Source: Desulfatiglandales bacterium
GTDB lineage: Bacteria; Desulfobacterota; DSM-4660; Desulfatiglandales; Desulfatiglandaceae
Length of the DNA stretch: 64,000 bases
NCBI GenBank assembly: GCA_963666345.1
Contig: OY762721.1
Coordinates: 3,200,001-3,264,000, forward strand
Direction of reading: 5' to 3'
Shown here: positions 9,532-64,000 of the stretch, in pieces
Layout: every line of letters starts with the position of its first letter
How positions within the stretch are numbered: position 1 is the stretch's first letter
Program-made: the position numbers and the translations under genes
Notes under the pieces: model-generated
What the model was told of the DNA's origin: nothing
Databases searched by the model: none
What the model saw: the letters and a program-made list of their open reading frames with translations, nothing else

Positions 9532-9597
9532 CTTTGACTTGACATTCTTGCATATAATCCATAACATTACTATGGGTAATATGGAATAAAGTCAAAG
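9532..9597 (+). promoter_or_regulatory. Putative sigma70 promoter with overlapping inverted-repeat operator of the abiE operon
   Basis: TTGACA(9539)-17 nt-TAACAT(9562). Inner IR CATATAATCCATA/TATGGGTAATATG (11/13 match) and outer IR CTTTGACTT/AAGTCAAAG. Confidence 0.6.
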
Positions 9598-9606
9598 GTG
9601 CAGTCG

Positions 9607-10413
9607 ATGAAACATGACGCGTTTTTCCGAAAACACCCGGTTTTTAACGGAAAAGAGTTGACCGACCATTTGTCGTCCCTGGGTGATGTAGGCGGACGAG
9701 CGCAGGAGGCACTTCTTGCCTATCACCGGAAGGCCGGTCGGGTTGTCCGGGTGCGACGAGGATTGTATGCCGTTATCCCTCCGGGGGCTGACCCTGATTC
9801 CTATCCGGTGGATCCTTTTCTCGTTGCCGCTAAGTTGACGCCGGATGCGGTGCTGTCGCACCATACCGCGCTCGAGTTCCACGGAAAGGCTTACTCGGTT
9901 TATACGCACCTCACCTACTCGGCATCCCGCCCCATCGGACCTTTGACATTTCGTACGCACGTTTTCCGGGGAGCGAAGTTTCGTCAAGCGCTTCTACTTC
10001 AGGGGAAAGAACATTTCGGTGTTTCGATCGCGGAGCGATCAGGCCAAGAGTTGAGCGTTACAAGCCTTGAACGGACCTTGGTCGATGTGTTGGATCGTCC
10101 AGACCTCTCAGGAAGCTGGGAGGAAATATGGCGGTCGCTTGAGTCCGTCGAATTCTTCGACCTCGACAAGGTCGTGGCGTGTGCACGCCTGCTCGGAAAT
10201 GCGACCACCGGGGCGAAGGTGGGGTTCTTTCTTGATCAGCACCGCAAAACATTAATGGTGGAGGACCGACATCTCAATTTACTTTACGACATGCGCCCAA
10301 GGCAGCCTCATTACATGAACCGTTCAAAGCGGAAATCCGGTCGATTCGTGTCGGAATGGAACCTGGTAGTTCCGAGGGAAGTCCTCGAACGGTCCTGGGG
10401 GGAGGTGTTATGA
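9607..10413 (+). CDS. Type IV toxin-antitoxin AbiEi-family antitoxin / transcriptional regulator
   Basis: wHTH N-terminus (GRVVRVRRGLY), LSHHTALEFHG and VTSLERTLVDVLDRPDLSG motifs; ATGA overlap with the toxin gene. ATG 9607 preferred over GTG 9598. Confidence 0.85.
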   Translation: MKHDAFFRKHPVFNGKELTDHLSSLGDVGGRAQEALLAYHRKAGRVVRVRRGLYAVIPPGADPDSYPVDPFLVAAKLTPDAVLSHHTALEFHGKAYSVYTHLTYSASRPIGPLTFRTHVFRGAKFRQALLLQGKEHFGVSIAERSGQELSVTSLERTLVDVLDRPDLSGSWEEIWRSLESVEFFDLDKVVACARLLGNATTGAKVGFFLDQHRKTLMVEDRHLNLLYDMRPRQPHYMNRSKRKSGRFVSEWNLVVPREVLERSWGEVL

Positions 10414-11381
10414 AAATTTCCCCCGAGAAGCTTACAGCCGAAGCGGAGGCGACGGGTTTCAGACCGGAGGAACTCGAAAAAGCCGCTCAACTGTTAGGGC
10501 TGCTGGATGCCTTGAGGAGTCACCCTTTTCTCAAAGACAAGCTGGTACTTAAGGGCGGTACGGCCTTGAACCTCTTCGTCTTTGATGTGCCCCGACTCTC
10601 CGTCGACATCGATCTCAACTATGTGGGAGCCCAAGATCGAGATGGCATGCTCGCTGAGCGTCCCAAGATCGAGCAGGCCGTTAAAGCGGTCTTTGCTCGT
10701 GAGGGTTTCACCGTGAGGCGGATGCCTGAAGAACACGCTGGAGGCAAGTGGTCGTTGCGGTATGAAAACAGCTTCGGCTTGGGCTGTAACCTCGAAGTGG
10801 ATCTCAATTTCATGTTCCGTATCCCTTTGTGGCCGGTGACAATCAGAGACTCTCATTCCGTCGGGTCTTGGCGGGCCACAGAGATTCCCGTACTGGATAA
10901 CCATGAGTTGGCGGCCGGGAAACTGGCTGCACTTCTCTCGCGCAGACAGGCGAGGGACCTGTTTGACGGCCATCGAATTCTCCGATTGGACGACATCGAT
11001 TCTAAACGCCTTCGCACCGGTTTTGTCGTCTACGGCGCAATGAACAGAAAGGATTGGAGAAAAGTCTCTGCCGACGATGTGTGGTTCGATGTCATGGAGT
11101 TGGCCAAGCAGTTGGTTCCCACTCTCCGCGTCAATTCAGCGGAAATCCAAGTGGAAGCAGCCGAATACGGGGAGCAACTGGTAAAAGAATGTCGAGATGG
11201 CCTGTCGGCGGTACTGCCCTTTTCAGACGCTGAGCGGGAATTCCTGGACTTGCTGCTCGACCGAGGGGAAATCAATGCTACGATTCTGACTTCTGATACA
11301 GCCTTGCAGAAACGTATTCAAGGGCAGCCGCTTCTGCAATGGAAGGCCTTTAATGTAAAACGCTACAAGGGACTGGCCTGA
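10410..11381 (+). CDS. AbiEii/AbiGii-family nucleotidyltransferase toxin
   Basis: LKGGTALNL...RLSVDIDL NTase motif and KLAALLSRRQARDLFD; start at the ATG overlapping the antitoxin stop, after GGAGG. Confidence 0.9.
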   Translation: MKISPEKLTAEAEATGFRPEELEKAAQLLGLLDALRSHPFLKDKLVLKGGTALNLFVFDVPRLSVDIDLNYVGAQDRDGMLAERPKIEQAVKAVFAREGFTVRRMPEEHAGGKWSLRYENSFGLGCNLEVDLNFMFRIPLWPVTIRDSHSVGSWRATEIPVLDNHELAAGKLAALLSRRQARDLFDGHRILRLDDIDSKRLRTGFVVYGAMNRKDWRKVSADDVWFDVMELAKQLVPTLRVNSAEIQVEAAEYGEQLVKECRDGLSAVLPFSDAEREFLDLLLDRGEINATILTSDTALQKRIQGQPLLQWKAFNVKRYKGLA

Positions 11382-11457
11382 TAAAACATGCCAAAATCGT
11401 AACAATGGTTTTATATGGAAGCAAATAAGTAATTGGTGTGCCCCTGAGTGCATCGAA

Positions 11458-11470
11458 TGGCTCCCCGGGA
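11458..11470 (-). repeat. 13-bp copy of the tRNA-Asn 3' end (att-like)
   Basis: TGGCTCCCCGGGA is identical to 13198-13210. Confidence 0.7.
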
Positions 11471-11521
11471 TCTTGGCTTACGCCTTGACTGTCGATACTT
11501 GGCTAATTTATTATTTTACAC

Positions 11522-11785
11522 CTATTCCATCTGCTGCGCGACACTATCAAGAAATAGTGCAACCCCCCGTTTTTTGATCTTCTTTTCAAGTTTCATAGCT
11601 TCAGCCCTATCATCGCACTCAACCAAATGGACTATTTTCCATGGACCTTTGAATCTTTTTGTAGTCTTTGAGAGCTGATACTCAGGGTCATTGTGCTGTG
11701 CAAGTCGGCGGGCAGGATCACTACTGTATCCACAATAGAATCTTCCGGTGGATTCACTTTTGAGGATGTAGACATAGAAGGACAT
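11522..11785 (-). CDS. Small GIY-YIG nuclease family protein
   Basis: MSFYVYILKSESTGRFYCGYS..RRLAQHN..TKRFKGPW..AMKLEKKIK. The longer ORF called from 11866 runs into the ISL3, so the true start is 11785. Confidence 0.85.
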   Translation of the reverse strand: MSFYVYILKSESTGRFYCGYSSDPARRLAQHNDPEYQLSKTTKRFKGPWKIVHLVECDDRAEAMKLEKKIKKRGVALFLDSVAQQME

Positions 11786-11805
11786 TGAATAGCCTAAATT
11801 AAAAA

Positions 11806-13154
11806 GGTTCATCCGGCAAATGCCGGGGTAATAATATTGGTTGGTGAATTTACTGTAAAAAGCCATAGAAAAATCGTCGCCAATGGGTTATCTCGTTTCT
11901 GAGCTACGACACTACAGACACGAGAGGAGACCGACAATGGCGACGACAAGCTTTTTGTATCACACAATGGGCCTTAAAGGCTACCGATACATTCGTACCG
12001 AGTATCGTTATGGTGTTGTCTTTTACCATGTAAAACTGAGGAACACCAAACGCAGGTGCAGAAGATGCGGTGCCAGGTGGCGTTATCTCAGAAAAGCAGG
12101 AAAATTTACCAGGGTTTTTCATGCCTTGCCCATTGGCAGAAAGCCACAGAAGATAGTGCTTCATGGGCATGAACAATACTGCCGGCATTGTGGACGTATA
12201 TTGAGGGAACCCATTAAATTTGCCAGAGGGAAAAAGCGTTCTTTGAGATGTTTTGATCGATTTATCGTTGATCTGTGCACTATTGCTACCATCAAGGCAG
12301 TGGCTGCGTTCCTTGGGGTTGGATGGGATCTGGTTAAAGGCATCTTCAAGGAAGATCTTAAAAAGCGCTTGAGCAGACGAAAGCTGAGAAGAGTCCGCTA
12401 CATTGCGGTTGATGAGTTTGCTCTTCGAAAGGGGCATCATTACATGACTGTGGTCATGGATCTTGAAACCGGACAGATCCTTTATGCTGAGAAGGGCAAG
12501 GATGCACAGGCCTTGATCCCTTTTCTCAAAACGCTGCGCAGGAGAAGAATAAAACTCATGGCAGTGGCAATGGACATGTCCCCGGCCTACATGAATGCTG
12601 TTAAGGAAGTATTCCCCAATGTTGATATCGTACACGATCCTTACCATGTGGTGGTTAATGTCAACAAGGCTATTGATGAAACCAGGAAAAATATTTACCG
12701 CACCATGACAGGCAAGCAGCGTGGCATCATTAAAGGATCGAGGTTTTTGCTGCTCAGACCGCTAGAGGCTTTAAGTGAGGCCTCACTTTCAAAGCTTTCT
12801 GCTATTATGGAAATCAATGAGCCGCTGTATAAAGCATATATACTGAAAGAAGAACTTCGCTGGTTCTGGAATCTACCGAATGCATGGTTAGGTGAGCAAT
12901 TCTTGGATAACTGGATCAAGGAAGCATACGAAACAGGTATCAAAAGCTTCATAAAGCTGGCTGATTCACTGCTGCGACACAAACCAGGTTTGTTATCATA
13001 TTTTGCTCACCGTATCTCCACTGGTCCACTTGAGGGCCTTAACAACAAAATCAAAGTGCTCAAACGACAAGCATATGGTTTCAGAGACAACGAGTATTTT
13101 AAACTACGTCTCTACTTCTTACATAATGACACCCCGGCATTTGCCGGATGAACC
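11806..13154 (+). mobile_element. ISL3-family insertion sequence, 1349 bp, apparently intact
   Basis: Perfect 24-bp terminal IRs GGTTCATCCGGCAAATGCCGGGGT (11806-11829 / 13131-13154) and 8-bp TSD ATTAAAAA (11798-11805 / 13155-13162). Confidence 0.95.
11937..13151 (+). CDS. ISL3 transposase
   Basis: Zn-finger CRRCG...CRHCG, IAVDEFALRKGHHYMT, AMDMSPAY, DPYHVV, EGLNNKIKVLKRQAYGFR. Confidence 0.95.
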   Translation: MATTSFLYHTMGLKGYRYIRTEYRYGVVFYHVKLRNTKRRCRRCGARWRYLRKAGKFTRVFHALPIGRKPQKIVLHGHEQYCRHCGRILREPIKFARGKKRSLRCFDRFIVDLCTIATIKAVAAFLGVGWDLVKGIFKEDLKKRLSRRKLRRVRYIAVDEFALRKGHHYMTVVMDLETGQILYAEKGKDAQALIPFLKTLRRRRIKLMAVAMDMSPAYMNAVKEVFPNVDIVHDPYHVVVNVNKAIDETRKNIYRTMTGKQRGIIKGSRFLLLRPLEALSEASLSKLSAIMEINEPLYKAYILKEELRWFWNLPNAWLGEQFLDNWIKEAYETGIKSFIKLADSLLRHKPGLLSYFAHRISTGPLEGLNNKIKVLKRQAYGFRDNEYFKLRLYFLHNDTPAFAG

Positions 13155-13507: not shown

Positions 13508-15412
13508 ATGAAGCAGATCATACTGGGCACGGCGGGTCATATCGATCATGGAAAGACCTCTCTTATAAAGGCGCTTACCGGAATCGACACAGACAGGTTG
13601 AAAGAGGAAAAGGCAAGGGGCATAACCATTGAACTGGGGTTTTCACACCTGGAGCTGCCCGGTGGCATGCTCCTGGGCATAGTGGACGTGCCGGGACACG
13701 AGAAATTCGTGAAAAACATGGTGGCGGGCGCGACCGGTATAGACCTCGTGGCCCTGGTTATCGCCGCTGATGAGGGGGTGATGCCCCAGACAAAGGAACA
13801 CCTGGAGATATGCCAGCTCCTGGATATCCGGTATGGCCTGGTGGTATTGACCAAGATAGATATGGTCGATGAGGAATGGCTTGATCTTGTGAAAGAGGAT
13901 GTAAGGGAATATCTCTCAAATACCTTTCTGGCCGATGCCCCAGTGGTGGAGGTGTCTTCCGTGACAGGCCGGGGGCTTGATGAAATGGTCGATGTCCTTG
14001 ACTCCCTGGTCAGCGGGATCCCCGAAAAAGATACGGGACACCTGTATCGGCTTCCGATCGACCGGGTTTTTACCATGAAGGGATTCGGCACGGTTATAAC
14101 GGGAACCAGTATCTCGGGAGAAATCGGAAACGGCGAAGATGTAACCATATACCCGCAGGAGATAAGCTCACGCATAAGGGGCCTTCAGGTTCACAACAAG
14201 GAGGTCGAGAAGGCGCATGCAGGCCTGAGAACGGCCGTTAATCTTCAGGGCCTTGAGAAGGAGGCTATCCGCAGGGGAGACGTGCTTGCATCAAAGGGCT
14301 CGTTACGGAAGACCATGATGATGGATGTAACTCTTGATCTTCTCCCAGCTGCCGCACGCAAGTTGAAGAACAGGGCAAAGGCACGTTTCCACACCGGGAC
14401 ATCGGAGATTATCTCCACGGTAGTTCTTCTTGACAGGGATGAACTGGCGCAGGGTGAGTCCTGTTTCGCGCAGATAAGGCTCAATGAACCGACCGCGGTG
14501 TTAAGAAATGACAGATTCGTGCTCAGGAGTTATTCCCCTGTCAGGACCATCGGCGGAGGTGTGATATTGAATCCACTTCCGAGAAAAAAGAAACGCTTTT
14601 CCGAAAGGGTGCTTTCCGAGATGGAGATCCTTAACAGCGGCGATACGAACAATATTATAAAATTATTTGTGGCTGAAGGCCGTTTTCAGGGTATTTCAAA
14701 GGGGGAGCTTTCCTTTCTCGTAAACATGAGCAGAAAAAAGCTTGAAGAGGCAGTCAAACCTCTTTTGGCAAAAAAGAGCCTGATCCTTTATAACAAGGAG
14801 GGGGAACTGCTGATCCACAGGGATCTTTACGATACCGCGGTCAATCAGATACTGGAGACGCTGGCTGATTATCACAAGAAATATCCATTAAAGGCGGGAC
14901 TTCAGAAGGAGGAACTGCGTTCAAGGACCGCCGGGGCAAAGAATCAGAGGCTCTTTGTCTCTCTGGTAAACAGGCTCATCAAGGACGGTACCCTGGTGCA
15001 GGAAAAAGAGAGCCTGCGCCTTAAAGAACACAGGGTCACCCTGGCCGCGGACCAGGAAAAGACCAGAAAAGAGATCAAGGAGATCTACAGAAAAAGCGGT
15101 CTTCAGCCTCCCTATTTCAAGGAGATAAAGGAGCGGTTCGCGGGGAGCACCGGACCTGAGGTCCTCGAATTCATGGTAAAGGACGGTGTGCTTGTCAAGG
15201 TGAAGGAGGATCTGTATTTTTATAAGGAAAGTGTTGGTCAGCTGGAAAAAAAGCTTGTTGATTTTCTAAGGGAAAAGGGCGAGATCACAACACCTCAGTT
15301 CAAGGAGATGACCGGGATTTCAAGGAAGTACACCATCCCTCTTATCGAATACTTTGACCGATGCCAGCTGACGGTAAGGGTAGGCGACAACAGGGTCCTT
15401 CGAAAGAGGTAG
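13508..15412 (+). CDS. selB: Selenocysteine-specific elongation factor SelB
   Basis: [36 protein letters not shown], and C-terminal winged helices ending [13 protein letters not shown]...RVGDNR. Confidence 0.95.
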
Positions 15413-19007: not shown

Positions 19008-19844
19008 ATGTTTGAAATATTAAGACGTGAGGAAATGGCTGATGGTACGGTTGTGATGAATGAGATCAGTGCCCCTCTCATTGCAAAAAATGCAAAGCCC
19101 GGTCAATTTGTCATCCTAAAGGCAAACGAGACTGGCGAGCGAGTCCCCCTTACCATGGCTGACAGTGACCCGGTAAAAGGTACTGTAACCGTCATGTACC
19201 AGGTTGTGGGAAAATCGACGATGTTGTTCAAATCTCTTCAGACGGGAGATCGTTTCCAGGATGTGATAGGCCCTCTGGGGAAGGCTACGCATCTGGAAAA
19301 GGTGGGAAACGTGGTATGCGTGGGAGGAGGGACAGGAGTCGCGGTCCTGCACCCCATTACCAGGGCACTCAAGGAGATGGGAAACAATGTCAAGGCTATC
19401 ATAGGAGCCAGGACAAAGGATCTGCTTATCCTTGAAGAAAAGATGAAGTCCGCATCTCATGAACTGCATGTCTGCACGGACGACGGCTCATACGGTCATC
19501 ACGGTTTTGTAACGGATGTGCTGAAGGATATCCTTGAAAAACATGACATAAAACTGGTTGTGGGAATAGGACCGGTTCCGATGATGAGGTTCGTGTGCAA
19601 GGTCACGGAGCAGTATAAGGTAAAGACCCTTGTCAGTCTCAACGCGATAATGGTTGACGGTACTGGTATGTGCGGCTGCTGCCGTGTGACTGTCGATGGA
19701 AAGACAAAATTTGCGTGTGTCGACGGTCCTGAATTCGACGGGCATAAGGTTGACTTTGACGTGCTGGCACAGCGACTGGAAGCCTACAAAGAGGAAGAGG
19801 CCTCGGCAGTGGAAAAATACAATAACGACTGCAAGCTGGGATAG
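19008..19844 (+). CDS. nfnA: NfnA/SudB-type small subunit of electron-bifurcating ferredoxin:NADP+ oxidoreductase
   Basis: PGQFVIL...GERVPLT, GGGTG, GPVPMM, MVDGTGMCGCCRV...CVDGPEFD. Confidence 0.85.
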   Translation: MFEILRREEMADGTVVMNEISAPLIAKNAKPGQFVILKANETGERVPLTMADSDPVKGTVTVMYQVVGKSTMLFKSLQTGDRFQDVIGPLGKATHLEKVGNVVCVGGGTGVAVLHPITRALKEMGNNVKAIIGARTKDLLILEEKMKSASHELHVCTDDGSYGHHGFVTDVLKDILEKHDIKLVVGIGPVPMMRFVCKVTEQYKVKTLVSLNAIMVDGTGMCGCCRVTVDGKTKFACVDGPEFDGHKVDFDVLAQRLEAYKEEEASAVEKYNNDCKLG

Positions 19845-19927
19845 CCCCGCACGATAGTTCTGTTTTCATGATTTTTGATGCTACACAGATTGAGTGAAAG
19901 ACCCGAGAGGGCTACAGGGAGGAAAAT

Positions 19928-21340
19928 ATGGCGGAAAAACAGGGTAAGAAAGAAAAAATTCCAAGGCAGATAATGCCTGAGCAGAAGCCTGAAGTAAGAA
20001 GAAGAAATTTTAAGGAAGTACCTACCGGTCTTACAGAGGATTTGGCGCTTAAAGAGGCTGCCAGATGTCTCCAGTGCAAGAAGCCTTCCTGTGTGGAAGG
20101 TTGTCCTGTATCAGTTGATATCCCCGGCTTTATCGCGTTGATCAAGGAAGGGGAATTTACCGGTTCTATCCGAAAGATATGGGAGAAAAACGCTTTGCCC
20201 GCGATATGCGGCAGGGTATGCCCCCAGGAAATACAGTGCGAGGGAAGCTGTATACTTGCCAAGAAGGGGGACCCGGTAGGAATAGGTAATCTTGAAAGAT
20301 TCGTGGCCGACCGCGAGCGCATGCACGGGAAAGGTGAACTGCCTCCCAAGGCCGCATCGACGGGGAAAAGGGTCGCTGTTATCGGATCGGGGCCTTCAGG
20401 CCTTACCGTGGCGGGGGATCTTATCCTAAAAGGCCATGACGTAACGATATTCGAGGCCTTCCACAAACCTGGCGGGGTCCTCGTCTACGGTATCCCGGAA
20501 TTCCGTCTTCCAAAGGAGATAGTGTATTCCGAAGTCAATTTTCTGGAACGCCTTGGAGCAAAACTTGAGATCAATACGGTAGTGGGAAGGACCGTATCCC
20601 TGGATGAACTTTTTGAACAGGGTTTTGACGCCGTCTATGTCGGAGTCGGTGCAGGCCTTCCACGCTTCCTGAATGTTCCGGGAGAAAACCTGATCGGAAT
20701 CTATTCGGCCAATGAATACCTCACAAGGGCGAATTTGATGAAGGCCTACCTGTTCCCCGAATATGATACCCCCATTGCCAAGGGAAAGGATGTCGTGGTG
20801 CTCGGGGCCGGAAACGTGGCAATGGATTCGGCAAGAACCGCCATGAGGCTGGGCGCCGATCGTGTACGGATTGTCTACAGGAGATCACGCGAAGAAATGC
20901 CGGCAAGGGCTGCGGAAATCCATCATGCCGAAGAAGAGGGTATCGAGTTTCATCTGCTTACCGCTCCCACCAGATTCATCGGAGATGAAAAGGGGCGCGT
21001 AAACTCAATGGAATGCCTCCAGATGAAGCTTGGAGAGCCTGATGAATCGGGGCGAAGAAGTCCGGTGCCCATTGAAGGATCCAAGTTCAATATCGAATGC
21101 GACCTTGTGGTTATCGCGGTGGGTGCGGGGGCCAACCCTCTGCTTACGCAATCTACCGATGGGCTTGAAATGAACAAATGGGGTTACATCATAGCCGATC
21201 CCAAGACGGGCAAAACCAGCAAGCACGGAGTTTGGGCCGGAGGCGATATAGTTACGGGGCAGGCCACGGTTATCCTTGCAATGGGAGCAGGCAGGGCAGC
21301 TTCCGATTCCATGCATGACTTTTTGACCCTTGGATGGTAA
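19928..21340 (+). CDS. nfnB: NfnB/SudA (GltD-like) large subunit
   Basis: RCLQCKKPSCVEGCP, CGRVCPQEIQCE, GSGPSGL, YGIPEFRL, GAGNVAMD; adjacent to nfnA. Confidence 0.85.
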   Translation: MAEKQGKKEKIPRQIMPEQKPEVRRRNFKEVPTGLTEDLALKEAARCLQCKKPSCVEGCPVSVDIPGFIALIKEGEFTGSIRKIWEKNALPAICGRVCPQEIQCEGSCILAKKGDPVGIGNLERFVADRERMHGKGELPPKAASTGKRVAVIGSGPSGLTVAGDLILKGHDVTIFEAFHKPGGVLVYGIPEFRLPKEIVYSEVNFLERLGAKLEINTVVGRTVSLDELFEQGFDAVYVGVGAGLPRFLNVPGENLIGIYSANEYLTRANLMKAYLFPEYDTPIAKGKDVVVLGAGNVAMDSARTAMRLGADRVRIVYRRSREEMPARAAEIHHAEEEGIEFHLLTAPTRFIGDEKGRVNSMECLQMKLGEPDESGRRSPVPIEGSKFNIECDLVVIAVGAGANPLLTQSTDGLEMNKWGYIIADPKTGKTSKHGVWAGGDIVTGQATVILAMGAGRAASDSMHDFLTLGW

Positions 21341-37748: not shown

Positions 37749-39485
37749 ATGGAAAAGATACTTAGAATCGACATGGGGGCTGAGGGCGGTCCAAAGGTGA
37801 CCGAGGAGCAGACAGGAGAATATGCCGGCCTGGGTGGACGGGCGCTGACATCTGCCATGGTGTATAAGGAGGTGCCGCCGCTTTGCCATCCCCTGGGTGC
37901 GGACAACAAGGTCGTAATCGCCCCCGGTCTTTTAAGCGGTTCTATCGCCGCCATGTCCGGCAGGCTTTCGATCGGCTGTAAGAGCCCCCTTACAGGCGGT
38001 ATAAAGGAGGCCAATTCAGGCGGACAGGCCGCGCAGGTGCTCGCAAGGCTTGGTTATGCGGCCGTAGTGCTTGAAGGTAAACCTGCCGACGATACCCTGT
38101 ACCGGATTGTAATAGACAGGGAGGGGGTAAAGATATCACCTGACAACAGCCTCAGGATGCTTGGAAATTATGACCTGATCGACAAGGTCAAGGGTGAGTT
38201 CGGAGACAAGGTGGCCTGCATCTCAATAGGTCCTGCAGGCGAGATGAAAATGGCGGCGGCATCCATTGCCTGTACTGACGTGGAATTCAGGCCGACAAGA
38301 CACGCCGGCCGGGGCGGAGTGGGAGCGGTCATGGGTTCAAAGGGTGTGAAGCTGATCGTGTTGGATGATAAGGGCATGAAAATGAGGGCGGCAAAGGATC
38401 CGGACAAGTTCAAAGCGGCGAACAAGTCGTGGGTTGAGGGATTGAGAAAGCATCCGGTTACGGGAGAAGGACTGCCGGCCTACGGTACCAATGTCCTTAC
38501 AAACGTCATAAACGAGGCAGGTGCTTATCCCACCAGGAATTTTTCAGAGGGCCGCTTCGAAGGAAGCGCCAAGATAAGCGGAGAGACCCTGGCCGAGACG
38601 GAGACCTCCAGGGGTGGCCTTGCCACCCACGGCTGCCACAGGGGTTGTGTCATAAGATGTTCAGGTACCTATGTGGACAAGGATGGCAATTTTCTTACCA
38701 AACAGCCTGAATACGAGACCGTTTGGTCCCATGGAGGTAATTGCGGAATAGACGATCTTGATTCCATTGCCATGCTGGACAGGCTGGATGATGACTTCGG
38801 ACTTGATACGATTGAAATGGGGGCGACCATCGGTGTTGCCATGGAGGCGGGTATAGCCAAATTCGGGGATGCCGAGGCGGCCATAAACCTGGTAAAAGAG
38901 GTGGGAAAAGGCACTCCGCTTGGAAGGATACTCGGAAATGGTGCGTCTGTAACGGGAAAGGTCTTTGGTGTCGAACGGGTTCCCGTTGTAAAGGGCCAGT
39001 CCATGCCCGCCTATGATCCAAGGGGTATCCAGGGTATCGGAGTGACCTATGCGACGAGCACAATGGGAGCCGACCATACAGCAGGTTACGCAATAGCCAC
39101 TAATATACTGGGTGTGGGCGGGAGCGTGGATCCCCTTAAGCCTGTCGGGCAGGTGGAGCTGTCAAGGAACCTGCAGATTGCAACTGCCGCGATTGATTCC
39201 ACCGGCATGTGCCTTTTTATAGCCTTTGCGATCATGGATCAGCCTGAGACCTTTCAGGCCCTGATCGATATGATAAATTCCTTTTACGGTCTTGAACTTA
39301 CGGCCGATGATGTTACGGAGCTTGGAAAATCGGTCCTGAAAAACGAAAGAAATTTCAATGCTGCTGCAGGTTTTACATCAAAGCATGACAGGCTGCCTGA
39401 GTATTTCAAAAATGAGGCGCTTCCTCCTCACGGGATAAAGTTCCAGGTAAAGGATGAAGATCTCGATCAGGTCTTCAACTGGTAA
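37749..39485 (+). CDS. aor: Aldehyde:ferredoxin oxidoreductase (tungsten AOR family)
   Basis: KSPLTGGIKEANSGG, IGPAGE, AGRGGVGAVMGSKG, CHRGCVIRC, PEYET, GLDTIE, YDPR. Confidence 0.93.
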   Translation: MEKILRIDMGAEGGPKVTEEQTGEYAGLGGRALTSAMVYKEVPPLCHPLGADNKVVIAPGLLSGSIAAMSGRLSIGCKSPLTGGIKEANSGGQAAQVLARLGYAAVVLEGKPADDTLYRIVIDREGVKISPDNSLRMLGNYDLIDKVKGEFGDKVACISIGPAGEMKMAAASIACTDVEFRPTRHAGRGGVGAVMGSKGVKLIVLDDKGMKMRAAKDPDKFKAANKSWVEGLRKHPVTGEGLPAYGTNVLTNVINEAGAYPTRNFSEGRFEGSAKISGETLAETETSRGGLATHGCHRGCVIRCSGTYVDKDGNFLTKQPEYETVWSHGGNCGIDDLDSIAMLDRLDDDFGLDTIEMGATIGVAMEAGIAKFGDAEAAINLVKEVGKGTPLGRILGNGASVTGKVFGVERVPVVKGQSMPAYDPRGIQGIGVTYATSTMGADHTAGYAIATNILGVGGSVDPLKPVGQVELSRNLQIATAAIDSTGMCLFIAFAIMDQPETFQALIDMINSFYGLELTADDVTELGKSVLKNERNFNAAAGFTSKHDRLPEYFKNEALPPHGIKFQVKDEDLDQVFNW

Positions 39486-53648: not shown

Positions 53649-54113
53649 CTAAAAATACTCCATGCTCGTCTTTTTAAACTCCTTTTCACTGAAAAGCAGT
53701 ATATAATCGTCTATTTCGATTAAACTGGACATGTCTTCGGCAATGTCATAGCATTGCTGCCTGCTGTTTCCATGTACCATGGTATAGAGATTGTAGGGCC
53801 AGTCCCTGTGTGGGACCCTCTGGTAGCAATGGGTGACCTCCCGGAATTCCGCCATCTTAGTTCCGACTTCGTCCACCCGGTGTTCCGGAACCTTCCATGC
53901 GATCATGGCATTTGAGCTGAAACCCGCCTCCTGATGTCTCAGGGTTGCGCCGAATCTCCTTATGATATTGCGTTTCTTGAGTCTTTTTACTGTATCGATG
54001 AATTCCTGCTCGCTTATGCCGATCTTTTGGGCAAGGATTTTAAAGGGTTTTTTGTGAAGGGGTATGTCACCCTGGATATGAGAAATAATTTTTTTTTCCA
54101 GCTCTTTGGGCAT
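53649..54113 (-). CDS. ahbB: Siroheme decarboxylase subunit (AhbB/NirH-like, Lrp/AsnC fold)
   Basis: IRRFGATLRHQEAGF..NAM, VTHCYQR...WPYNLYTMVH, EFKKTSMEYF; upstream of hemL. Confidence 0.85.
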   Translation of the reverse strand: MPKELEKKIISHIQGDIPLHKKPFKILAQKIGISEQEFIDTVKRLKKRNIIRRFGATLRHQEAGFSSNAMIAWKVPEHRVDEVGTKMAEFREVTHCYQRVPHRDWPYNLYTMVHGNSRQQCYDIAEDMSSLIEIDDYILLFSEKEFKKTSMEYF

Positions 54114-56787: not shown

Positions 56788-57498
56788 ATGGAAAGACTAG
56801 ATCAGAAAATGCATGAAAGATATGTGAAGGCTCTGATGGATATAAGCCAGGCCATCACCTCGGATCTGTACATCGAAGATATCCTCAAGCTGATAGTCAT
56901 GGTAACTGCCAAGGTTACCGGGGTGGAGATCTGCTCTTTATGGTTGATGGATGAGACTCATAGGCCGCCCATGATGAGGCTCAAGGCGACCCAGGCCCTT
57001 GACCCCGTCTACATGAAGGACAGGTCCCTAAATATGGACGAGGGTGTCGTGGGATACGTCGCCACCACCAATGAACCTCTTATCCTTAAGGAGCTCATGA
57101 AGGAGCCCCGGTTCAAGGAAAAGGAGATGGCCAAAAAACTGGGCCTTGTTTCCATGGTAAGCGTGCCCCTCCATGTCAAGGAGGAAAAGGTCATAGGTGT
57201 GCTTAACTGCTTTACCTCCGAGCCTCATGCGTTTTCCGAAACAGAGGTGAACCTCATAACAACGGTGGCCAATCAGGCGGCAATCGCCATCCATAACACC
57301 AGGCTTATAGTCCGTACAAAGGTGATTGAGGAGGAACTGGAGGCCAGAAAAGATATTGAAAAGGCCAAGGAGATACTGATGACGAAAAAGGATCTTCCGG
57401 CCGACAAGGCCTTCAGGTGGCTCCAGAAAAAAAGCATGGACACAAGACAGTCGATAAGAAAGATCGCCGAGGCGGTAATCATTTCACAGGACCTTTAG
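56788..57498 (+). CDS. GAF + ANTAR RNA-binding antiterminator
   Basis: GAF (EGVVGYVA, SVPL, VANQAAIAIHN) followed by ANTAR (RKDIEKAKEILM...AFRWLQKKSMDTR). Confidence 0.9.
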   Translation: MERLDQKMHERYVKALMDISQAITSDLYIEDILKLIVMVTAKVTGVEICSLWLMDETHRPPMMRLKATQALDPVYMKDRSLNMDEGVVGYVATTNEPLILKELMKEPRFKEKEMAKKLGLVSMVSVPLHVKEEKVIGVLNCFTSEPHAFSETEVNLITTVANQAAIAIHNTRLIVRTKVIEEELEARKDIEKAKEILMTKKDLPADKAFRWLQKKSMDTRQSIRKIAEAVIISQDL

Positions 57499-57972
57499 CA
57501 GGTCCCCATCCCATATAACTTCTAATGCGCTGCGGCACGGGCGCTCTTCTTTCGCTTGGTTTGTCGATCGTTTGGACATATAGGATTCTAGGGCTCAAGG
57601 GGCCGAGGGGTCAAGCGTTTCACGTATTTTTCTCCAATACTCAAAACAAATAACCGTCCCAGCCTCACCCCTTAAATGACACCAGGTTTTGAGCCGGTCT
57701 TTTCCCCAGAACAAATTATCTCTCATATTTGAAAGAAAGACACCTGCATCCAAGGCAAACATGGATATGCCGAATATGTCTATAATTTTTAGGGTGGAAG
57801 ATATCCTGTCGGGTTGAAATGAAATCACGGTTCGATTGTCGGCCTACAGAATATCTTTATTATTTTTGGTAGAGATTTCACTGTTGGAATTAATTATAGG
57901 TAATGTTAATATAAATTATTAATGCTAGGGCTTAATTACAGAGACCTCTATTTTTGTTGAAATATTAAAAAG

Positions 57973-59103
57973 ATGAATGAGGCGATGATGGGTTTTTTGG
58001 GTTCTTTTATGGAATTTGAAATCGTCGGCAATAAATTATGGCGTATTATTGCGCTATTTGGAATTATACTTATTTCATTTATTCTTGGAAAGATCCTGAA
58101 GTATATCCTACAAAAATCGGCCGTCAGGGTAGAAAACCTTCAGCGCAGGGTATTAGGGGCAACATTAGATGCTTCCAGTCGTGGAATAGTTTTTTTATTC
58201 TCTGCTTTTGGAATTTCCCTTGGGCTAGCTTTTTTAGAATTAAAGTCCAAAGTAGTTGCAATATCGGAAGTTGCAAGCGCAATCCTTGTGAGCATTGGTA
58301 TCGGTTATTTTCTATTCTGGCTGGTGGAGATTCCCAGTAGATGGCTAGCTGAAATTGCGGAAAAAACCGAGAGCAAGCTGGATGACACTCTGGTTCCTAT
58401 CATAAGAAAAAGCCTGCGAATCACCATAATCATTCTTGTTCTAGTTCAGATTGCTCAAACATTGAGTGATAAACCCATTACTTCAATCATTGCGTGTTTG
58501 GGGATTGGTGGCCTTGCCTTTGCTCTAGCAGCACAAGACACGATCAAAAATTTTTTTGGCTTTATTGTGCTTTTAATTGATAAACCATTTAAGATCGGCG
58601 ACCGTGTTGTTTTTGAAGGTCATGACGGGCCTGTTGAAGAGATGGGTTTTCGTTCAACGAAAATTAGGACATTGGATGGTCATCTTGTGGCGGTTCCGAA
58701 TGGTCAGCTTGCCAACCAGGTCATAAGGAATATAACAAGCCGTCCATTTATTAAACGGACGGTCAATTTGACAATTACCTACGATACACCACCTGAAAAA
58801 ATTGACCGTGCCGTTGAGATTCTTAAAGAGATTTTGGATAACCACGACGGAATGGCTGAAAAGCGTCCGCCGCATATCTATTTCAATGATTTTAACGCAG
58901 ATTCTCTCAATATCATTGTGATTTACTGGTACCACCCTCCCGATTATTGGGATTACATGGCTTTTTCTGAAAAGTTTAATAAAGAAGTTTTTCGAAGGTT
59001 TAATGAAGAAAAAATTGATTTCGCATTTCCGACCCAAACAGTATATTTGGCAGGAGATCCCTCACGACCTTTAGATATCGGGATCAATAAGGAAGGTGCT
59101 TGA
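57973..59103 (+). CDS. MscS-family mechanosensitive channel
   Basis: GIGGLAFALAAQDTIKNFFG, DKPFKIGD, GFRSTKIRT, VPNG, FAFPTQ. Confidence 0.92.
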   Translation: MNEAMMGFLGSFMEFEIVGNKLWRIIALFGIILISFILGKILKYILQKSAVRVENLQRRVLGATLDASSRGIVFLFSAFGISLGLAFLELKSKVVAISEVASAILVSIGIGYFLFWLVEIPSRWLAEIAEKTESKLDDTLVPIIRKSLRITIIILVLVQIAQTLSDKPITSIIACLGIGGLAFALAAQDTIKNFFGFIVLLIDKPFKIGDRVVFEGHDGPVEEMGFRSTKIRTLDGHLVAVPNGQLANQVIRNITSRPFIKRTVNLTITYDTPPEKIDRAVEILKEILDNHDGMAEKRPPHIYFNDFNADSLNIIVIYWYHPPDYWDYMAFSEKFNKEVFRRFNEEKIDFAFPTQTVYLAGDPSRPLDIGINKEGA

Positions 59104-59379
59104 TCAGATCATGACGCCATATCATACGCGAAGATTTCGTTCGGCCTACACCGCAGAGTTCCAGACAAGAGGATTAATCTTCTTATATTTAGCAACTTTA
59201 ACGGTTATAACAGGCATTACCCTGCATATTTTATGAAGATATTATTCATTTTCAAATTCCATCTATAGTTCACTGTTTTATAGTCTTTATTTTTTGGTGC
59301 TGATATCTTTTTTGCACTCTGAATAAGATGGTCTCTTTTCCCTTTCAAAAAAAAATATATCAAAACGGAGTAATCGACT

Positions 59380-60381
59380 ATGTCAGGAACAGATGTGTTG
59401 ATTATGGCCATCTTTTTGATTGGTCTTTTGGGATTCTCAGCTTTTTTTTCAGGGTCCGAGACGGCCCTCATGTCCATTAGCAGGCTCCGGCTAAGACATC
59501 TGGTCAAAACAAAACCAATGCGAGTGAAGCTTGTCGAGCGTGTTTTGAAAAGACCTGAAAAGCTCATCGGGACTATTCTACTGGGAAACAACCTCGTAAA
59601 TGTGGCAATGTCGGCTATTGCAACTGCGCTTGCCATCTCCATGTGGGGAGACAAGGGCATCGTCTATGTAACAATTGTCTTGACCTTTGCAATTTTGATA
59701 TTTGCCGAGATTACTCCGAAGGTTTATGCAAAATATTTTAACGAACGCGTCTCTTTTCTTACCGCACCCATTCTCAACATACTCATGATTTTTTTAAATC
59801 CTGTCGTAATTATCGTGACCTATCTCAGCGGCAGGATTCTATTTTTATGTGGTATTGATGTGTCCAAGATCGAAAAACCTCTGATGAGTGAAGATGAAGT
59901 TCTCACATGCATTAAGATGGGCTGGAGCGACGGTACGATTACCTCTGAAGAAAGACTTATGCTTTCAAGGGTTTTCACTTTAAATGACAAAGCCGTTGGT
60001 GATGTAATGATACCGAAAGAAAAAGTGATGAGTATCGATTCTGATGCACCCCTTGAAAAGATTTACAATGTCATCGTAAGGACGGGGCACAGCCGTTTTC
60101 CTGTAGGGGATATCAATAAGTCGGATTTCATAGGTTTTATTCATGTAAAGGACCTTTTCCGAGTGAAAGATGAAAAAGGCGCTGACTTTTTAAAAGATTT
60201 TATAAGGCCTCCTTACTTTGTGCCGGAAAACAAAAAAATTGATGCCCAGCTAAGGGATTTTCAAGCGCAGAAACTTCATCAAGCCATTGTTAAAAAAGCT
60301 GATGGTTCCATTACTGGTTTGATTACTCTGGAAGATATCCTGGAGGAACTTGTAGGAAGTATCCAGGATGAGCATGATTAG
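59380..60381 (+). CDS. CNNM/DUF21 + CBS-pair (HlyC/CorC family) membrane protein
   Basis: SAFFSGSETAL, TILLGNNLVN, FAEITPK, GHSRFPV, TLEDILEELVG; ends without the CorC_HlyC domain. Confidence 0.9.
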   Translation: MSGTDVLIMAIFLIGLLGFSAFFSGSETALMSISRLRLRHLVKTKPMRVKLVERVLKRPEKLIGTILLGNNLVNVAMSAIATALAISMWGDKGIVYVTIVLTFAILIFAEITPKVYAKYFNERVSFLTAPILNILMIFLNPVVIIVTYLSGRILFLCGIDVSKIEKPLMSEDEVLTCIKMGWSDGTITSEERLMLSRVFTLNDKAVGDVMIPKEKVMSIDSDAPLEKIYNVIVRTGHSRFPVGDINKSDFIGFIHVKDLFRVKDEKGADFLKDFIRPPYFVPENKKIDAQLRDFQAQKLHQAIVKKADGSITGLITLEDILEELVGSIQDEHD

Positions 60382-60404
60382 ACAACTCAAGCAAGGAGGA
60401 AAAA

Positions 60405-61442
60405 ATGTCAGCGAATTCAAAGGGATTGGATAGAAGGAATTTTCTGAAATTTGCAGCACTTGCAACCGGTGGCGCCGCATTACACGGCAGTTTGTCTTTC
60501 CCGGGTGCGGCTCAGGCAGGTGAAGAACCGGAAAGCCCGATTTATCTCGCTCTGAACATGTCCAAGGTGTCCAATAATGAGGAAAGTTTCAGGCTGATGA
60601 AAAAGGTCGGTCCGAAGGTCTGCATTACCACTGCGACCCATTCGGGATTTGTCGGCTTTCAGGCAAACATCCAGACAGGCATACTGCCTCTTGCCGGCAG
60701 ATATGGGGGCGGCAAGGTGCATATGGAAAAGGAACTTAATCCCATACGAAACTATCAATACACCATGTGGAGACACTGGCAGGATCATGATGATTTTCAT
60801 CAAAAGCAGTTTAACCGTATCTTCGAGCTCTGCGGAAGCTGCCTGGGTATGGTGATAGAAGGGCCTTGGGAGCCTGTCTACAGGATTGTAAAGGCAAAGA
60901 TGGTTCCTATAAGGTCAATGGGGCAGATTGTCGATCTGGCAGGGGATATCCGGCAGAAAAAGGACTTTATTCGTTTTGCCACACCACGGAGATGCGTGGC
61001 CATGGCCGAACATACGGTGATGCCTGGAAAAGAGAAGGAATTCGAACAGGGGGCGATTGCAACAATGGAGGCACTGTCCGATTCCACCGGGTTTCTTGGG
61101 TATATGATTCTTAAGCAGATCGGGGTCTGCGCCCTTGGAAGCTTCATGATGGATCCTAAGTCAATGGCTGAAAGCCTTCAAACCTTGGGTGCCAATCCGC
61201 CGGAAAATCCCAGGCCCCTGTTCGAGACTCCCAGTGCTAGGCCTAGTCCACCTGAATATCTTATACACAGCGAATGGGATGCAGCGGAAATGGCGCAACT
61301 GGGTTTTGCCAAAGTCCTTGTAAATAACAGGATCAGGAAGATTCATGATGACGGGGTCATGGCTCACTTGATTAGAGGGCCTTATATAATGTTCTTCCAG
61401 CCGATGATGGAGGAGCCGGGCTGGAGGTCTATGATCTCCTAG
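60405..61442 (+). CDS. sor: Sulfur oxygenase/reductase (SOR) family protein with a Tat signal peptide
   Basis: VGPKVC, GFVGFQ, RYGG, QYTMW..W.DH...H, LCGSC, GPWEP motifs; N-terminal DRRNFLK, hydrophobic stretch and AQA cleavage site. Confidence 0.9.
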   Translation: MSANSKGLDRRNFLKFAALATGGAALHGSLSFPGAAQAGEEPESPIYLALNMSKVSNNEESFRLMKKVGPKVCITTATHSGFVGFQANIQTGILPLAGRYGGGKVHMEKELNPIRNYQYTMWRHWQDHDDFHQKQFNRIFELCGSCLGMVIEGPWEPVYRIVKAKMVPIRSMGQIVDLAGDIRQKKDFIRFATPRRCVAMAEHTVMPGKEKEFEQGAIATMEALSDSTGFLGYMILKQIGVCALGSFMMDPKSMAESLQTLGANPPENPRPLFETPSARPSPPEYLIHSEWDAAEMAQLGFAKVLVNNRIRKIHDDGVMAHLIRGPYIMFFQPMMEEPGWRSMIS

Positions 61443-61510
61443 ATACTGAAGACCGGCATTCATTCGGATTTTGAGCAAACGGAGACTTTGACAACGGAGA
61501 GGCTTAAACA

Positions 61511-63637
61511 ATGTCTATAAAAGAGTTCCGGCCGGGAAAACCCTACCCTCTGGGTGCGACCTTTGACGGAGAAGGAACCAATTTTGCCCTTTTTTCAGAA
61601 TGCGCGGAAGGAGTCGAACTGCTCCTTTTTGATCACAGTGAGGATCAAAGGCCGACAGATATAATTTCATTAGGGGAAAGGACCGCCTTTGTCTGGCATC
61701 GCTATATACCTGGAATAAAACCCCCTCAGTTTTACGCCTTCAGGGTCAATGGCCCCTATGAACCTGAGAAAGGACACAGATGCAATCCCTCAAAAGCCCT
61801 CCTCGACCCCTATGCTAGGGCTATTTCCGGAACCATTCAGTGGAATGATGTGCTGTTCGGTTATACACTGGGTAATCCCGATGAAGATCTCAAGCCAGAT
61901 GAACGGGACTCCTGCCCCTATGTGCCCAAATGCGTTGTTGTGGATCCCTCATATGACTGGGAAGGTGACCTGCTGCCCCGGATTCCCTGGGATGAGACCG
62001 TCATCTATGAAGCCCATGTTAAGGGCTTGACAATGAGACATCCGGAAGTGGAGGAAGAAAAACGCGGAACCTATGCAGGATTATGCGCCCCGGCTGTCCT
62101 CGATTATCTGAAAGGCCTTGGGATAACCGCTGTGGAGCTTCTCCCTGTTCACCAGCACGTGGACGACAGGACTCTTGTGAACAGGGGACTTACAAATTAC
62201 TGGGGATATAATACCATCAGTTACTTTGCCCCGGATTGCCGCTATTCCAGCTCGGGCGGCAATGGAGAGCAGGTTCAAGAATTCAAGGACATGGTGAAAG
62301 CCTTTCACAGGGCCGGCATCGAAATGATACTCGATGTAGTTTACAATCACACGGCGGAAGGGAACCAACTAGGCCCCACCCTTTCCTTCCGAGGCATCGA
62401 TAATATGTCTTACTACCATCCTTCCCCTGATAACCCCCGCTATTACATGGATTTCACAGGAACCGGGAACAGTTTGCGTATGTCGCATCCTAACGTTACC
62501 CAGCTCATAATGGACAGTTTGCGCTATTGGGTGATGGAGATGCATATAGATGGTTTCAGGTTTGATCTTGCATCGACCCTCGCAAGGGAGCTTTTCGAGG
62601 TGGACAGGCTATCAGCCTTTTTTGATATCATCCAGCAGGACCCTGTTCTGTCAAGGGTTAAGCTCATCGCTGAGCCATGGGATCTGGGGCCGGGCGGATA
62701 CCAGGTCGGAAATTTTCCACCTCTCTGGACGGAATGGAATGGAAAGTTCCGGGATACTGTCAGGCATTTCTGGAAAGGTGATGAGGGTCAGGTTTCTGAT
62801 CTGGCTTACCGGTTGACGGGTTCAAGTGATCTGTACCGGGACGACGGTCGAAAACCTTATGCCAGTATCAACTTCGTTACCTGTCACGACGGATTCACAA
62901 TGAATGATCTTGTAAGCTATAATGAAAAGCACAATGATGCGAATCTTGAAGATAACAAAGACGGTACTGAGAACAACATAAGCTGGAACTGCGGTGCGGA
63001 AGGGCCTGTTGATGATCCTGAGATAATCGGACTCAGGACCCGTCAAAAAAAGAACTTTCTTGCAACCGTCTTTCTCTCCCAGGGTGTGCCGATGCTTCTA
63101 GGAGGAGACGAAACAGGCAGGACCCAACAGGGCAACAATAATGCCTATTGCCAGGACAATGATATAAGCTGGTATAGCTGGGATCTCCAGGAATCTGAAA
63201 AGGGTCTGCTTGAGTTCAGTCGATCCCTAATTGCTCTGAGAAAGAGACATCCTATCTTCAGGCGGAGGAAATTCTTTAAAGGTCAGGGTTTTTTCGGGGC
63301 CGAGTTAAAGGATCTGACCTGGTTGAAACCGGATGGAGGAGAGATGTCGGATCCGGACTGGAAAGATCCCGGCCTAAGGACCATCGGAATCTTACTGTCG
63401 GGCGATTCTATAACCGAGACCGACCGATCAGGCAGGAAGATCCTTGACGACACCTTTTTGATCCTCATGAATACCTTTCATCAAATGATCCCTTTTAAGA
63501 TGCCTGCATCGGAAAAACCTTGGAAACTGGTATTCGATACCTTTCGGGGAGGCTTTGAACAAGACCATGAGGTAAAAAGAGAGGTTATTTACAGCCTTGC
63601 GGCACGCTCTGTTTCCCTATTTCAAAAACACAGGTAG
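61511..63637 (+). CDS. glgX: Glycogen debranching enzyme GlgX
   Basis: [53 protein letters not shown]. Confidence 0.96.
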
Positions 63638-63709
63638 GGATAGATGAAAACGCGAGCTTAAACGACTTATATGCATCACCTTTTTGTTCAACATTGAAAG
63701 GAGACGGCC

Positions 63710-64000
63710 ATGAAACAGAGAAAATCGAAGGGTAACACCGGAATGCGAAGGGTCACTTTCTCGCTTGATGCGCCTCAGGCAAACGAGGTCTATTTGATGG
63801 GGGACTTCAGTGGTTGGAGGGCTAAAACGCATTCCTTGAAAAAGAACCGGGACGGGATATGGCAAAAGATCTTGATGCTTGAGCCCGGCCGGTACGAATA
63901 CAGGTATCTGGTCGACGGAGACTGGTGGAATGACCCCCAAAACGACCAGATGTGCCCCAATTGTTTCGGGACACAAAATAGCGTGATCAGGATAAAGGAA
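63710..64000 (+). CDS. CBM48 / AMPK-beta-like glycogen-binding protein, runs off the window
   Basis: Manual translation RVTFSLDAPQANEVYLMGDFSGW...GIW...LEPGRYEYRYLVDGDWWNDP...FGTQNSVI; RBS GGAG. Confidence 0.85.
   Translation, partial: MKQRKSKGNTGMRRVTFSLDAPQANEVYLMGDFSGWRAKTHSLKKNRDGIWQKILMLEPGRYEYRYLVDGDWWNDPQNDQMCPNCFGTQNSVIRIKE

Follow-up and report, generated by a model that had tools for sequence, protein, structure and literature searches.

Locus and protein

We analyzed a 64,000-nucleotide stretch of DNA (hereafter the window) from a Desulfatiglandales bacterium (contig OY762721.1, positions 3,200,001 to 3,264,000), which contains a gene for a precursor protein of the sulfur oxygenase reductase (SOR) family with a predicted twin-arginine translocation (Tat) signal. 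SOR is known from textbooks as an O2-dependent, sulfur-disproportionating enzyme cage in the cytoplasm of aerobic sulfur oxidizers, and an earlier reading of this stretch (the original prediction) had proposed that here it is exported, in an apparent strict anaerobe. The gene occupies 60405..61442, with its ATG at 60405, 345 codons and a stop codon at 61440-61442; it and all of its features given below lie on the forward strand. A ribosome-binding site, AAGGAGG, can be read directly at 60393..60399, 5 nt ahead of the ATG. Residues 1-38 (60405..60518) form the putative signal peptide, with the twin arginines R10-R11 encoded at 60432..60437, and residues 39-345 (307 aa; 60519..61439) form the mature SOR domain.

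The product matches the Pfam SOR profile (PF07682, EC 1.13.11.55) over its full length (residues 46-341 on profile positions 2-300 of 300) with 470.8 bits against a cut-off of 25 (E 1.7e-141), a search that the original prediction had proposed as a check. Eleven distinct sequences in the Protein Data Bank match at E <= 1, every one a sulfur oxygenase reductase, the best being 6qpa (E 2.6e-94), 3bxv (5.2e-79) and 2cb2 (2.9e-78), and NCBI labels the relatives 'SOR family protein'. An AlphaFold monomer model built from a 131-sequence alignment that includes distant representatives had a predicted local distance difference test score (pLDDT) of 87.8 and a predicted template modeling score (pTM) of 0.83, and it is the model used here; a shallow alignment of 24 close relatives gave a pLDDT of 34.3. 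The score exceeds 90 across most of residues 39-345 and falls below 50 only at residues 1-8 and 20-37, the signal segment being of low pLDDT and set apart from the folded body. The model matches the SOR monomer fold, a beta-barrel core with surrounding helices, and Foldseek aligned it with 6qpa, 2cb2, 3bxv and 6m35 at target-normalized template modeling (TM) scores of 0.91-0.92, root-mean-square deviations (rmsd) of 1.8-2.2 Å and 39-46% identity.

The SOR motifs named in the original prediction (VGPKVC with C73, H128, H132, C143, C146 and E156) are all present, and the constant offset of +42 that it gave relative to the Acidianus ambivalens enzyme was reproduced. Alignments to 6qne (an A. ambivalens mutant) and 3bxv (A. 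tengchongensis) run from query 47-156 to chain 5-114 without gaps, so the offset is exact for all six residues: C73 (60621..60623) corresponds to Cys31, H128 and H132 (60786..60800) to His86 and His90, C143 and C146 (60831..60842) to Cys101 and Cys104, and E156 (60870..60872) to Glu114. Iron is bound by His86, His90 and Glu114; the H86A, H90A, E114A and C31A mutants are inactive, and C101A and C104A lose activity about tenfold (PMC7398979; published work is cited throughout for the accessible passages of each paper). Across the 131 sequences, which reach down to 22% identity, only H128, H132, G153, P154, E156 and P326 are invariant, while C73, C143 and C146 are invariant among the 24 close relatives and at least 90% conserved among the 131.

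Residues linked to the architecture of the enzyme are largely kept as well. The active-site pore residues Met296/Met297 are found as M334/M335 and the Zn-site residues His166/His277 as H203/H314, and the chimney residues Phe133/Val137/Phe141 are replaced by I175/A179/I182, which are still hydrophobic. Conservation of the chimney and pore would be consistent with assembly into a 24-mer. The trimer-channel residue Arg99 is a glutamate here (E141). Two further cysteines are conserved in the clade: C197 (60993-60995), present in 66 of 70 Tat-bearing and 35 of 45 cytoplasmic-type sequences, where solved SORs have Val or Thr, and C242 (61128-61130), present in 70 of 70 and 41 of 45, respectively, where solved SORs have Ser. 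Judged by its sequence, the gene encodes a complete SOR-family member with the mononuclear iron site, the essential cysteine and the two auxiliary cysteines. Cytoplasmic location is a descriptive rather than a catalytic trait of the family, and the protein with its predicted export is therefore still filed within it, as a variant.

Export signal

The extension ahead of the SOR domain has the parts of a Tat signal. Where the Tat consensus is (S/T)-R-R-x-F-L-K, the protein has, after a short polar N-region, D9-R10-R11-N12-F13-L14-K15, followed by an alanine- and glycine-rich core (residues 16-35; mean hydropathy of residues 16-31, 1.03) and then A36-Q37-A38, after which we infer cleavage by the AxA rule. 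TIGR01409 scores 22.0 bits, above its cut-off of 16.7, in agreement with the signal originally described (DRRNFLK, a hydrophobic core and AQA); Pfam TAT_signal (PF10518) gives 21.7 bits, slightly below its cut-off of 22.7. The original prediction had also named a true start further downstream as a possible flaw in this reading. No better start was found: the position of the ribosome-binding site supports the upstream ATG, and the next in-frame methionine, M52, lies within the conserved first strand.

The signal is conserved among relatives. Of the 256 protein clusters that a homology search gave at E <= 0.001, the best 120, all 69-100% identical, were sorted by their N-termini: 70 carry a twin-arginine extension of about 46 residues, 45 have no extension, 3 are ambiguous (two cut inside the signal, one with H-R for R-R) and 2 are truncated. 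In the 70 Tat-bearing clusters, R-R and the phenylalanine at +3 are each present in 70 of 70 and the lysine at +5 in 64 of 70, and AxA-type signal ends are conserved, while the hydrophobic core varies; selection on the signal would be expected to leave such a pattern. The H-R pair occurs in relative P0043, in a signal that is otherwise normal.

The host genome encodes TatC (259.8 bits; G000:C1:907925-908554), and a gene for TamB a few genes downstream of SOR indicates that the cell has an outer membrane and thus a periplasm. We regard it as very probable that the gene encodes a real SOR-family enzyme exported by Tat.

Relatives and phylogeny

A scan for relatives in one genome per species, from which the best 80 of 135 were kept, gave 81 loci once the window locus (L001) was added. 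Among these 80, the relatives at 53-86% identity are all metagenome-assembled genomes (MAGs) or single-cell assemblies, from Desulfobacterales, Syntrophales, Anaerolineales, Sumerlaeota, Planctomycetota, Armatimonadota, NC10 and similar lineages, and classical sulfur oxidizers such as Acidithiobacillus, Halothiobacillus, Thiomonas and Thiohalobacter reach no more than 46-48%. All of the best 120 of 256 protein clusters likewise belong to the clade seen in MAGs of mostly anaerobic lineages. The clade is thus large, and the caution of the original prediction that it might not be wholly new was justified. The SOR gene itself is patchy: of 60 related genomes, 4 have it (3 of 36 from the same family and 1 of 24 from other families of the order). 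A search of 1.84 billion clustered proteins gave 91 representatives at E <= 0.001, which makes the SOR family as a whole a small one.

Five of the 81 loci are partial (L057, L061, L064, L067 and L068) and were left out. In the remaining 76, upstream frames read by eye revealed a signal in 22 (L001-L017, L024, L032, L040, L059 and L065). Loci L019, L037, L039 and L079 were flagged by the motif and rejected as Tat-bearing, as their arginines are not followed by a hydrophobic core.

A phylogeny of Tat-bearing SORs and their hosts had been suggested in the original prediction. In a quick maximum-likelihood tree of mature domains, for which the classical rows were chosen as the root, 65 rows are separated from these 11 classical rows with an SH-aLRT support of 100. 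On this tree the signal label changes at least five times, and at least three changes are forced by well-supported branches. Constraining the 22 Tat rows to a single group lowers the log-likelihood by 58.35 units (p-AU 0.036), and the Tat-bearing L008 is sister (support 98) to a signal-less group of 15 rows. These data are evidence that the export signal was lost repeatedly within the clade.

Loss of the signal can also be seen directly at L019:4285-5208, from a MAG labelled Desulfonema: the frame upstream of this gene retains a decayed signal in which another residue stands in for one of the two arginines and no hydrophobic core is left. The L019 sequence falls with two Tat-bearing ones (support 99) and looks like a loss of the signal caught in progress.

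Host genome and other carriers

The host genome is a single contig of 4,162,108 bp, rated 96.7% complete, with one SOR gene. It contains dsrA (574 bits, over the cut-off) with dsrB and dsrD directly downstream, which is the reductive arrangement, as well as aprA (869 bits) and desulfoferrodoxin (superoxide reductase). Neither heme-copper oxidase subunit I (COX1) nor cytochrome bd subunit I was found in this one-contig genome. The dsrABD arrangement and aprA, together with the failure to find an oxidase, mark the host as a sulfate reducer without a recognizable O2 reductase. From its gene content, it looks like a strict anaerobe. The original prediction had likewise taken the host for an anaerobe rather than an aerobic sulfur oxidizer, from genes elsewhere in the window that it called selB, nfnAB, AOR and ahbB; these are real, and were identified as SelB (13508-15412), an NfnAB-like pair (19008-21340), AOR (37749-39485) and a siroheme-decarboxylase-like gene (53649-54113).

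DsrA scores over its cut-off in 17 of the 21 other genomes with a Tat-type SOR. COX1-family matches occur in 3 of the 21 and cytochrome bd in 4, their union being 4, so that neither oxidase was seen in 17 of 21 (18 of 22 counting the host), an absence that is not proven because these genomes are MAGs of unstated completeness.

The genome of L032 (G078), a MAG labelled Ectothiorhodospiraceae, combines a Tat-type SOR with both COX1 and cytochrome bd and is without DsrA. The exported form is therefore not confined to anaerobes. In this genome the SOR gene adjoins a divergent SulP permease.

Surroundings of the gene and neighborhoods in relatives

Upstream of the SOR gene on the same strand is a CNNM/CBS membrane-protein gene (Pfam; 59380..60381), the end of which is separated from the SOR ATG by 23 nt. 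The two are possibly on one transcript. A promoter and terminator scan of 57400-63800 found no terminator-like site between them, although sites in that region were no more numerous than in shuffled sequence and no transcription unit was obtained. In a metatranscriptome library, one 286-nt contig (5 mismatches, 1 indel) spans 60295-60577 and bridges the junction. It hints only weakly at transcription, given that the sequence is that of a near relative and that the library may contain DNA. DNA of the window is present in marine-sediment and other metagenome sequencing runs.

The remaining flanking genes are, by Pfam, a GAF-ANTAR regulator and MscS upstream, and GlgX, a small CBM48 protein, a Na/Ca exchanger, DUF502 and TamB downstream. 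The guanine-plus-cytosine (GC) content of the SOR gene is about 50%, matching its downstream neighbors, and the GC profile holds no compositional trace of a recent transfer of the gene. Some of these surroundings can be described further. The GAF-ANTAR gene (56788-57498), two genes upstream of the CNNM-SOR pair, encodes an RNA-binding regulator of the antiterminator type. After GlgX, a 98-aa stand-alone CBM48/AMPK-type glycogen-binding protein is encoded at 63710-64000 and runs on to G000:C1:3264006; a similar small CBM48 gene lies near the Tat-type SOR in L002, L012 and L013, probably through lineage synteny. At the other end of the window, a SWIM-domain protein, a 1043-aa SNF2 helicase with DUF3670, an AbiEii toxin-like gene and an ISL3 transposase occur together at 4829-13151, in what looks like a mobile or defense-type patch.

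For the relatives, open reading frames (ORFs) within 5 kb of SOR were clustered in the 81 loci (22 Tat, 48 cytoplasmic-type and 11 classical) and cluster representatives were annotated, as were, around the 21 other Tat loci, 50 of the 123 ORFs located at a distance of up to 3 kb. A two-gene YeeE/TsuA-like sulfur-compound transporter occurs at 7 of 22 Tat loci, 12 of 48 cytoplasmic-type loci (second half, 11) and 0 of 11 classical loci, though this count and those that follow include close relatives and therefore overstate the independence of the loci. A SoxB-like metallophosphoesterase (222 bits on the SoxB model, cut-off 550) is encoded directly downstream of SOR at 1 Tat, 12 cytoplasmic-type and 0 classical loci, and a fusion of MBL and rhodanese domains resembling persulfide dioxygenase is found at 0, 6 and 1, respectively. 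TauE (5 of 48) and a DASS/CitMHS transporter (6 of 48) were seen only at cytoplasmic-type loci, and SufBD (7 of 22), a DUF255 thioredoxin-like protein (5 of 22) and a ferritin-like protein (4 of 22) only at Tat loci. One Tat locus, L006, has rubrerythrin directly downstream of SOR. Through these neighbors the clade is tied to the transport of inorganic sulfur and, loosely, to functions in oxidative stress.

Three features of these neighborhoods are observations in their own right. The SoxB-like gene, of the metallophosphoesterase/5'-nucleotidase-C type and with SoxB as its top NCBIfam model, overlaps or abuts the SOR stop codon (L008, L020-L022, L025-L027, L029, L038 and others), and the pairing of the two in MAGs of anaerobes is an undescribed one. 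The MBL-rhodanese fusion lies 1-3 kb upstream of a signal-less SOR in L020, L021, L026, L027, L029 and L067; these MAGs, of presumed anaerobes, would thereby have a second sulfur enzyme that uses O2. A leader of 60-75 nt separating the YeeE-like gene from a signal-less SOR gene in L022, L023, L025, L026 and L043 translates to a near-identical peptide in MAGs labelled as different phyla. An Rfam scan of these five loci at gathering thresholds gave no match, and recent transfer of the cluster in its entirety may be all that the conservation of the leader reflects.

Discussion

On balance, we think it probable that this SOR works in the periplasm, where it would consume O2 that intrudes and convert sulfur or polysulfide to sulfite, thiosulfate and sulfide. 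The SOR protein would fold and take up iron in the cytoplasm before export; folding and iron binding before export are the usual reason for Tat routing. It would then be exported by Tat as a monomer or small oligomer (subunits or dimers), be cleaved after AQA38 and probably assemble into a hollow multimer in the periplasm. By the family reaction, 4 S + O2 + 4 H2O -> 2 HSO3- + 2 HS- + 4 H+, the enzyme would form sulfite and sulfide, with thiosulfate arising non-enzymatically. O2 meeting the cell's own sulfide would make zero-valent sulfur and polysulfide abiotically, so that entry of O2 into a sulfidic envelope would make the two substrates of the enzyme appear together. SOR would in this way remove O2 and sulfane sulfur ahead of the cytoplasm, and the sulfite and thiosulfate produced could be taken up and respired through the host's Dsr pathway. 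The recurrent TsuA/YeeE-like neighbor fits uptake of sulfite or thiosulfate.

The O2-dependent chemistry of the family is favored because the 2-His-1-carboxylate iron site and the sulfur-binding cysteine are intact. Taken with the neighbors seen in relatives, the intact site leads us to lean toward O2-dependent scavenging over O2-independent disproportionation, and we put the chances of such a scavenging role at even or slightly better. In Bohai Sea sediment, where 105 SOR sequences were reported, 50 of them in 39 MAGs of which 33 are Desulfobacterota, sor transcripts were 'highly upregulated' in air-shaken slurries given NaHS, the source taxa not being stated in the accessible passages (PMC12345210).

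Several observations weigh against this interpretation. Tat passes folded proteins of only a few nanometers; an 871-kDa cage is too large for this route, and export before assembly must be assumed. The absence of any oxidase in the host may equally well point to a SOR that has ceased to use O2. On the NCBI SOR equivalog model NF047630 the protein scores 314 bits, below the cut-off of 400. At the thresholds used, no residue told exported from cytoplasmic mature domains (70 versus 45 clusters), and the domain thus bears no mark of periplasmic adaptation. None of the genes flanking SOR in this genome is a sulfur gene; the host's YeeE-like genes lie away from the SOR locus. The shared ancestry behind the neighbor counts and the unstated completeness of the MAGs without oxidases count on the same side.

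The alternative that survives best, though we think it unlikely, is that the exported SOR is now O2-independent and produces sulfite and sulfide by disproportionation of sulfur or polysulfide in an anoxic periplasm, feeding Dsr. The want of a terminal oxidase in the host and in 17 of the 21 other carriers favors it, and the half-reaction 3 S + 3 H2O -> HSO3- + 2 HS- + 3 H+ is O2-free on paper (PMC7398979). The first enzyme of microbial sulfur disproportionation is still unknown (PMC12998232, PMC8780430). Against this stand the fully kept iron site and the published record, as far as the accessible passages go: characterized SORs are described as O2-dependent (PMC7398979), and the obligate disproportionator D. 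hydrothermale is without Sor (PMC8780430). The patchy occurrence of the gene in related genomes is ill-suited to a core energy pathway, and relatives adjoin persulfide-dioxygenase-like and rubrerythrin-like genes. In its most specific form, in which the SOR cage is assembled in the periplasm and acts there as an O2-free sulfur or polysulfide disproportionase, the idea is rather improbable.

A SOR fold acting on another substrate (e.g., organic polysulfanes, persulfides or sulfite-related compounds), such that the name SOR would mislead, has in our view a small chance of being right. The shortfall on the NCBI equivalog model points that way, as do the identity of only 40-46% to characterized enzymes, the long branch between the anaerobe clade and classical bacterial SORs, the clade-conserved C197 and C242 that solved enzymes are missing, and the change of the trimer-channel Arg99 to Glu. 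The mapped catalytic, pore and chimney residues are nevertheless all kept, and the relatives' neighbors are inorganic-sulfur genes (TsuA/YeeE-like, SoxB-like and TauE). It is very improbable that the N-terminal extension is not a working signal (a wrong start or an uncleaved relic) and that SOR stays cytoplasmic: the TAT_signal score, the 45 of 120 closest clusters that have no extension and yet no group-specific difference in the mature domain, and the decayed signal of L019 would suit this explanation, but the ribosome-binding site before the upstream ATG, the position of M52 in a conserved strand, the conservation of R-R, F+3, K+5 and AxA-type ends over 70 clusters with a variable core, and the TIGR01409 score all speak for a working signal.

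Periplasmic scavenging of O2 with sulfur, if true, would give sulfate reducers an oxidase-free defense against O2. An O2-dependent enzyme would also provide a route for regeneration of sulfite and thiosulfate at oxic-sulfidic interfaces, with a bearing on cryptic sulfur cycling in sediments. An O2-independent enzyme would instead bear on the first step of sulfur disproportionation, and a periplasmic cage that works without O2 could be the enzyme missing from this step in some of the Desulfobacterota, as well as the first exported self-compartmentalizing enzyme cage. Whether or not the enzyme depends on O2, the question arises of how a 24-mer forms after export by Tat.

Comparison with known SORs

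Characterized SORs catalyze O2-dependent oxygenation and disproportionation within a 24-mer chamber 'separated from the cytoplasmic environment' (PMC7398979), the holoenzyme consisting of 24 subunits of 35 kDa with a total of 871 kDa (PMC9529111). In PMC12998232, O2-dependent SOR is set apart from anaerobic disproportionation and taken no further. That SOR homologues occur in anaerobes is already known. The homologue in a sulfate reducer that the original prediction mentioned can be traced to Desulfomicrobium baculatum: sor was reported in this species and in a Desulfomicrobium MAG, with its role there called unclear (PMC6137086), and the accession of the D. baculatum homologue has been given (PMC5023260). 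We found no description of an exported or signal-bearing SOR in the open literature, subscription journals lying outside the search; in the accessible passages of PMC12998232, PMC5114278 and PMC10045233, mentions of Tat or signal peptides concern other proteins. New here are the size of the Tat-bearing group, the evidence for repeated loss of its signal, the near-absence of terminal oxidases among its carriers, the recurrent transporter neighbor and the finding that exported and cytoplasmic mature domains are indistinguishable.

The best solved match is the SOR of Halothiobacillus neapolitanus (6qpa; TM 0.92, rmsd 2.1 Å, 45-46% identity), which shares the iron ligands, the three cysteines and the glutamate at the archaeal Arg99 position. 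It comes from a sulfur oxidizer, its solved chain is without a signal peptide and begins at the mature domain (query 43 corresponds to chain 4), and it has Thr and Ser at the positions of this clade's C197 and C242. The SORs of A. ambivalens, A. tengchongensis and Sulfurisphaera tokodaii (2cb2, 3bxv and 6m35) share the fold (TM 0.91-0.92), the six catalytic residues at +42, the Met-Met pair of the pore and the Zn-site histidines. They differ in being archaeal, thermoacidophilic, cytoplasmic 24-mers (PMC7398979, PMC9529111) of 39-40% identity, with a chimney loop longer by 5 residues and Arg99 where this protein has Glu.

Published SORs of anaerobes, those of D. baculatum and of the Bohai Sea Desulfobacterota MAGs, have in common with the present one that the gene occurs in sulfate reducers; they are treated as cytoplasmic, SOR being so called in PMC12345210, and a signal peptide goes unmentioned in the accessible passages. 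One of our relatives, L026, is a MAG from the same deep-groundwater site as a published anaerobe SOR homologue, and it is of the signal-less type. The signal-less sister forms of Syntrophales, Anaerolineales, Sumerlaeota, Planctomycetota and others have mature domains 69-85% identical and YeeE-like neighbors in common with the Tat-bearing proteins; they are without the N-terminal extension and are often clustered with SoxB-like, TauE, DASS and MBL-rhodanese genes.

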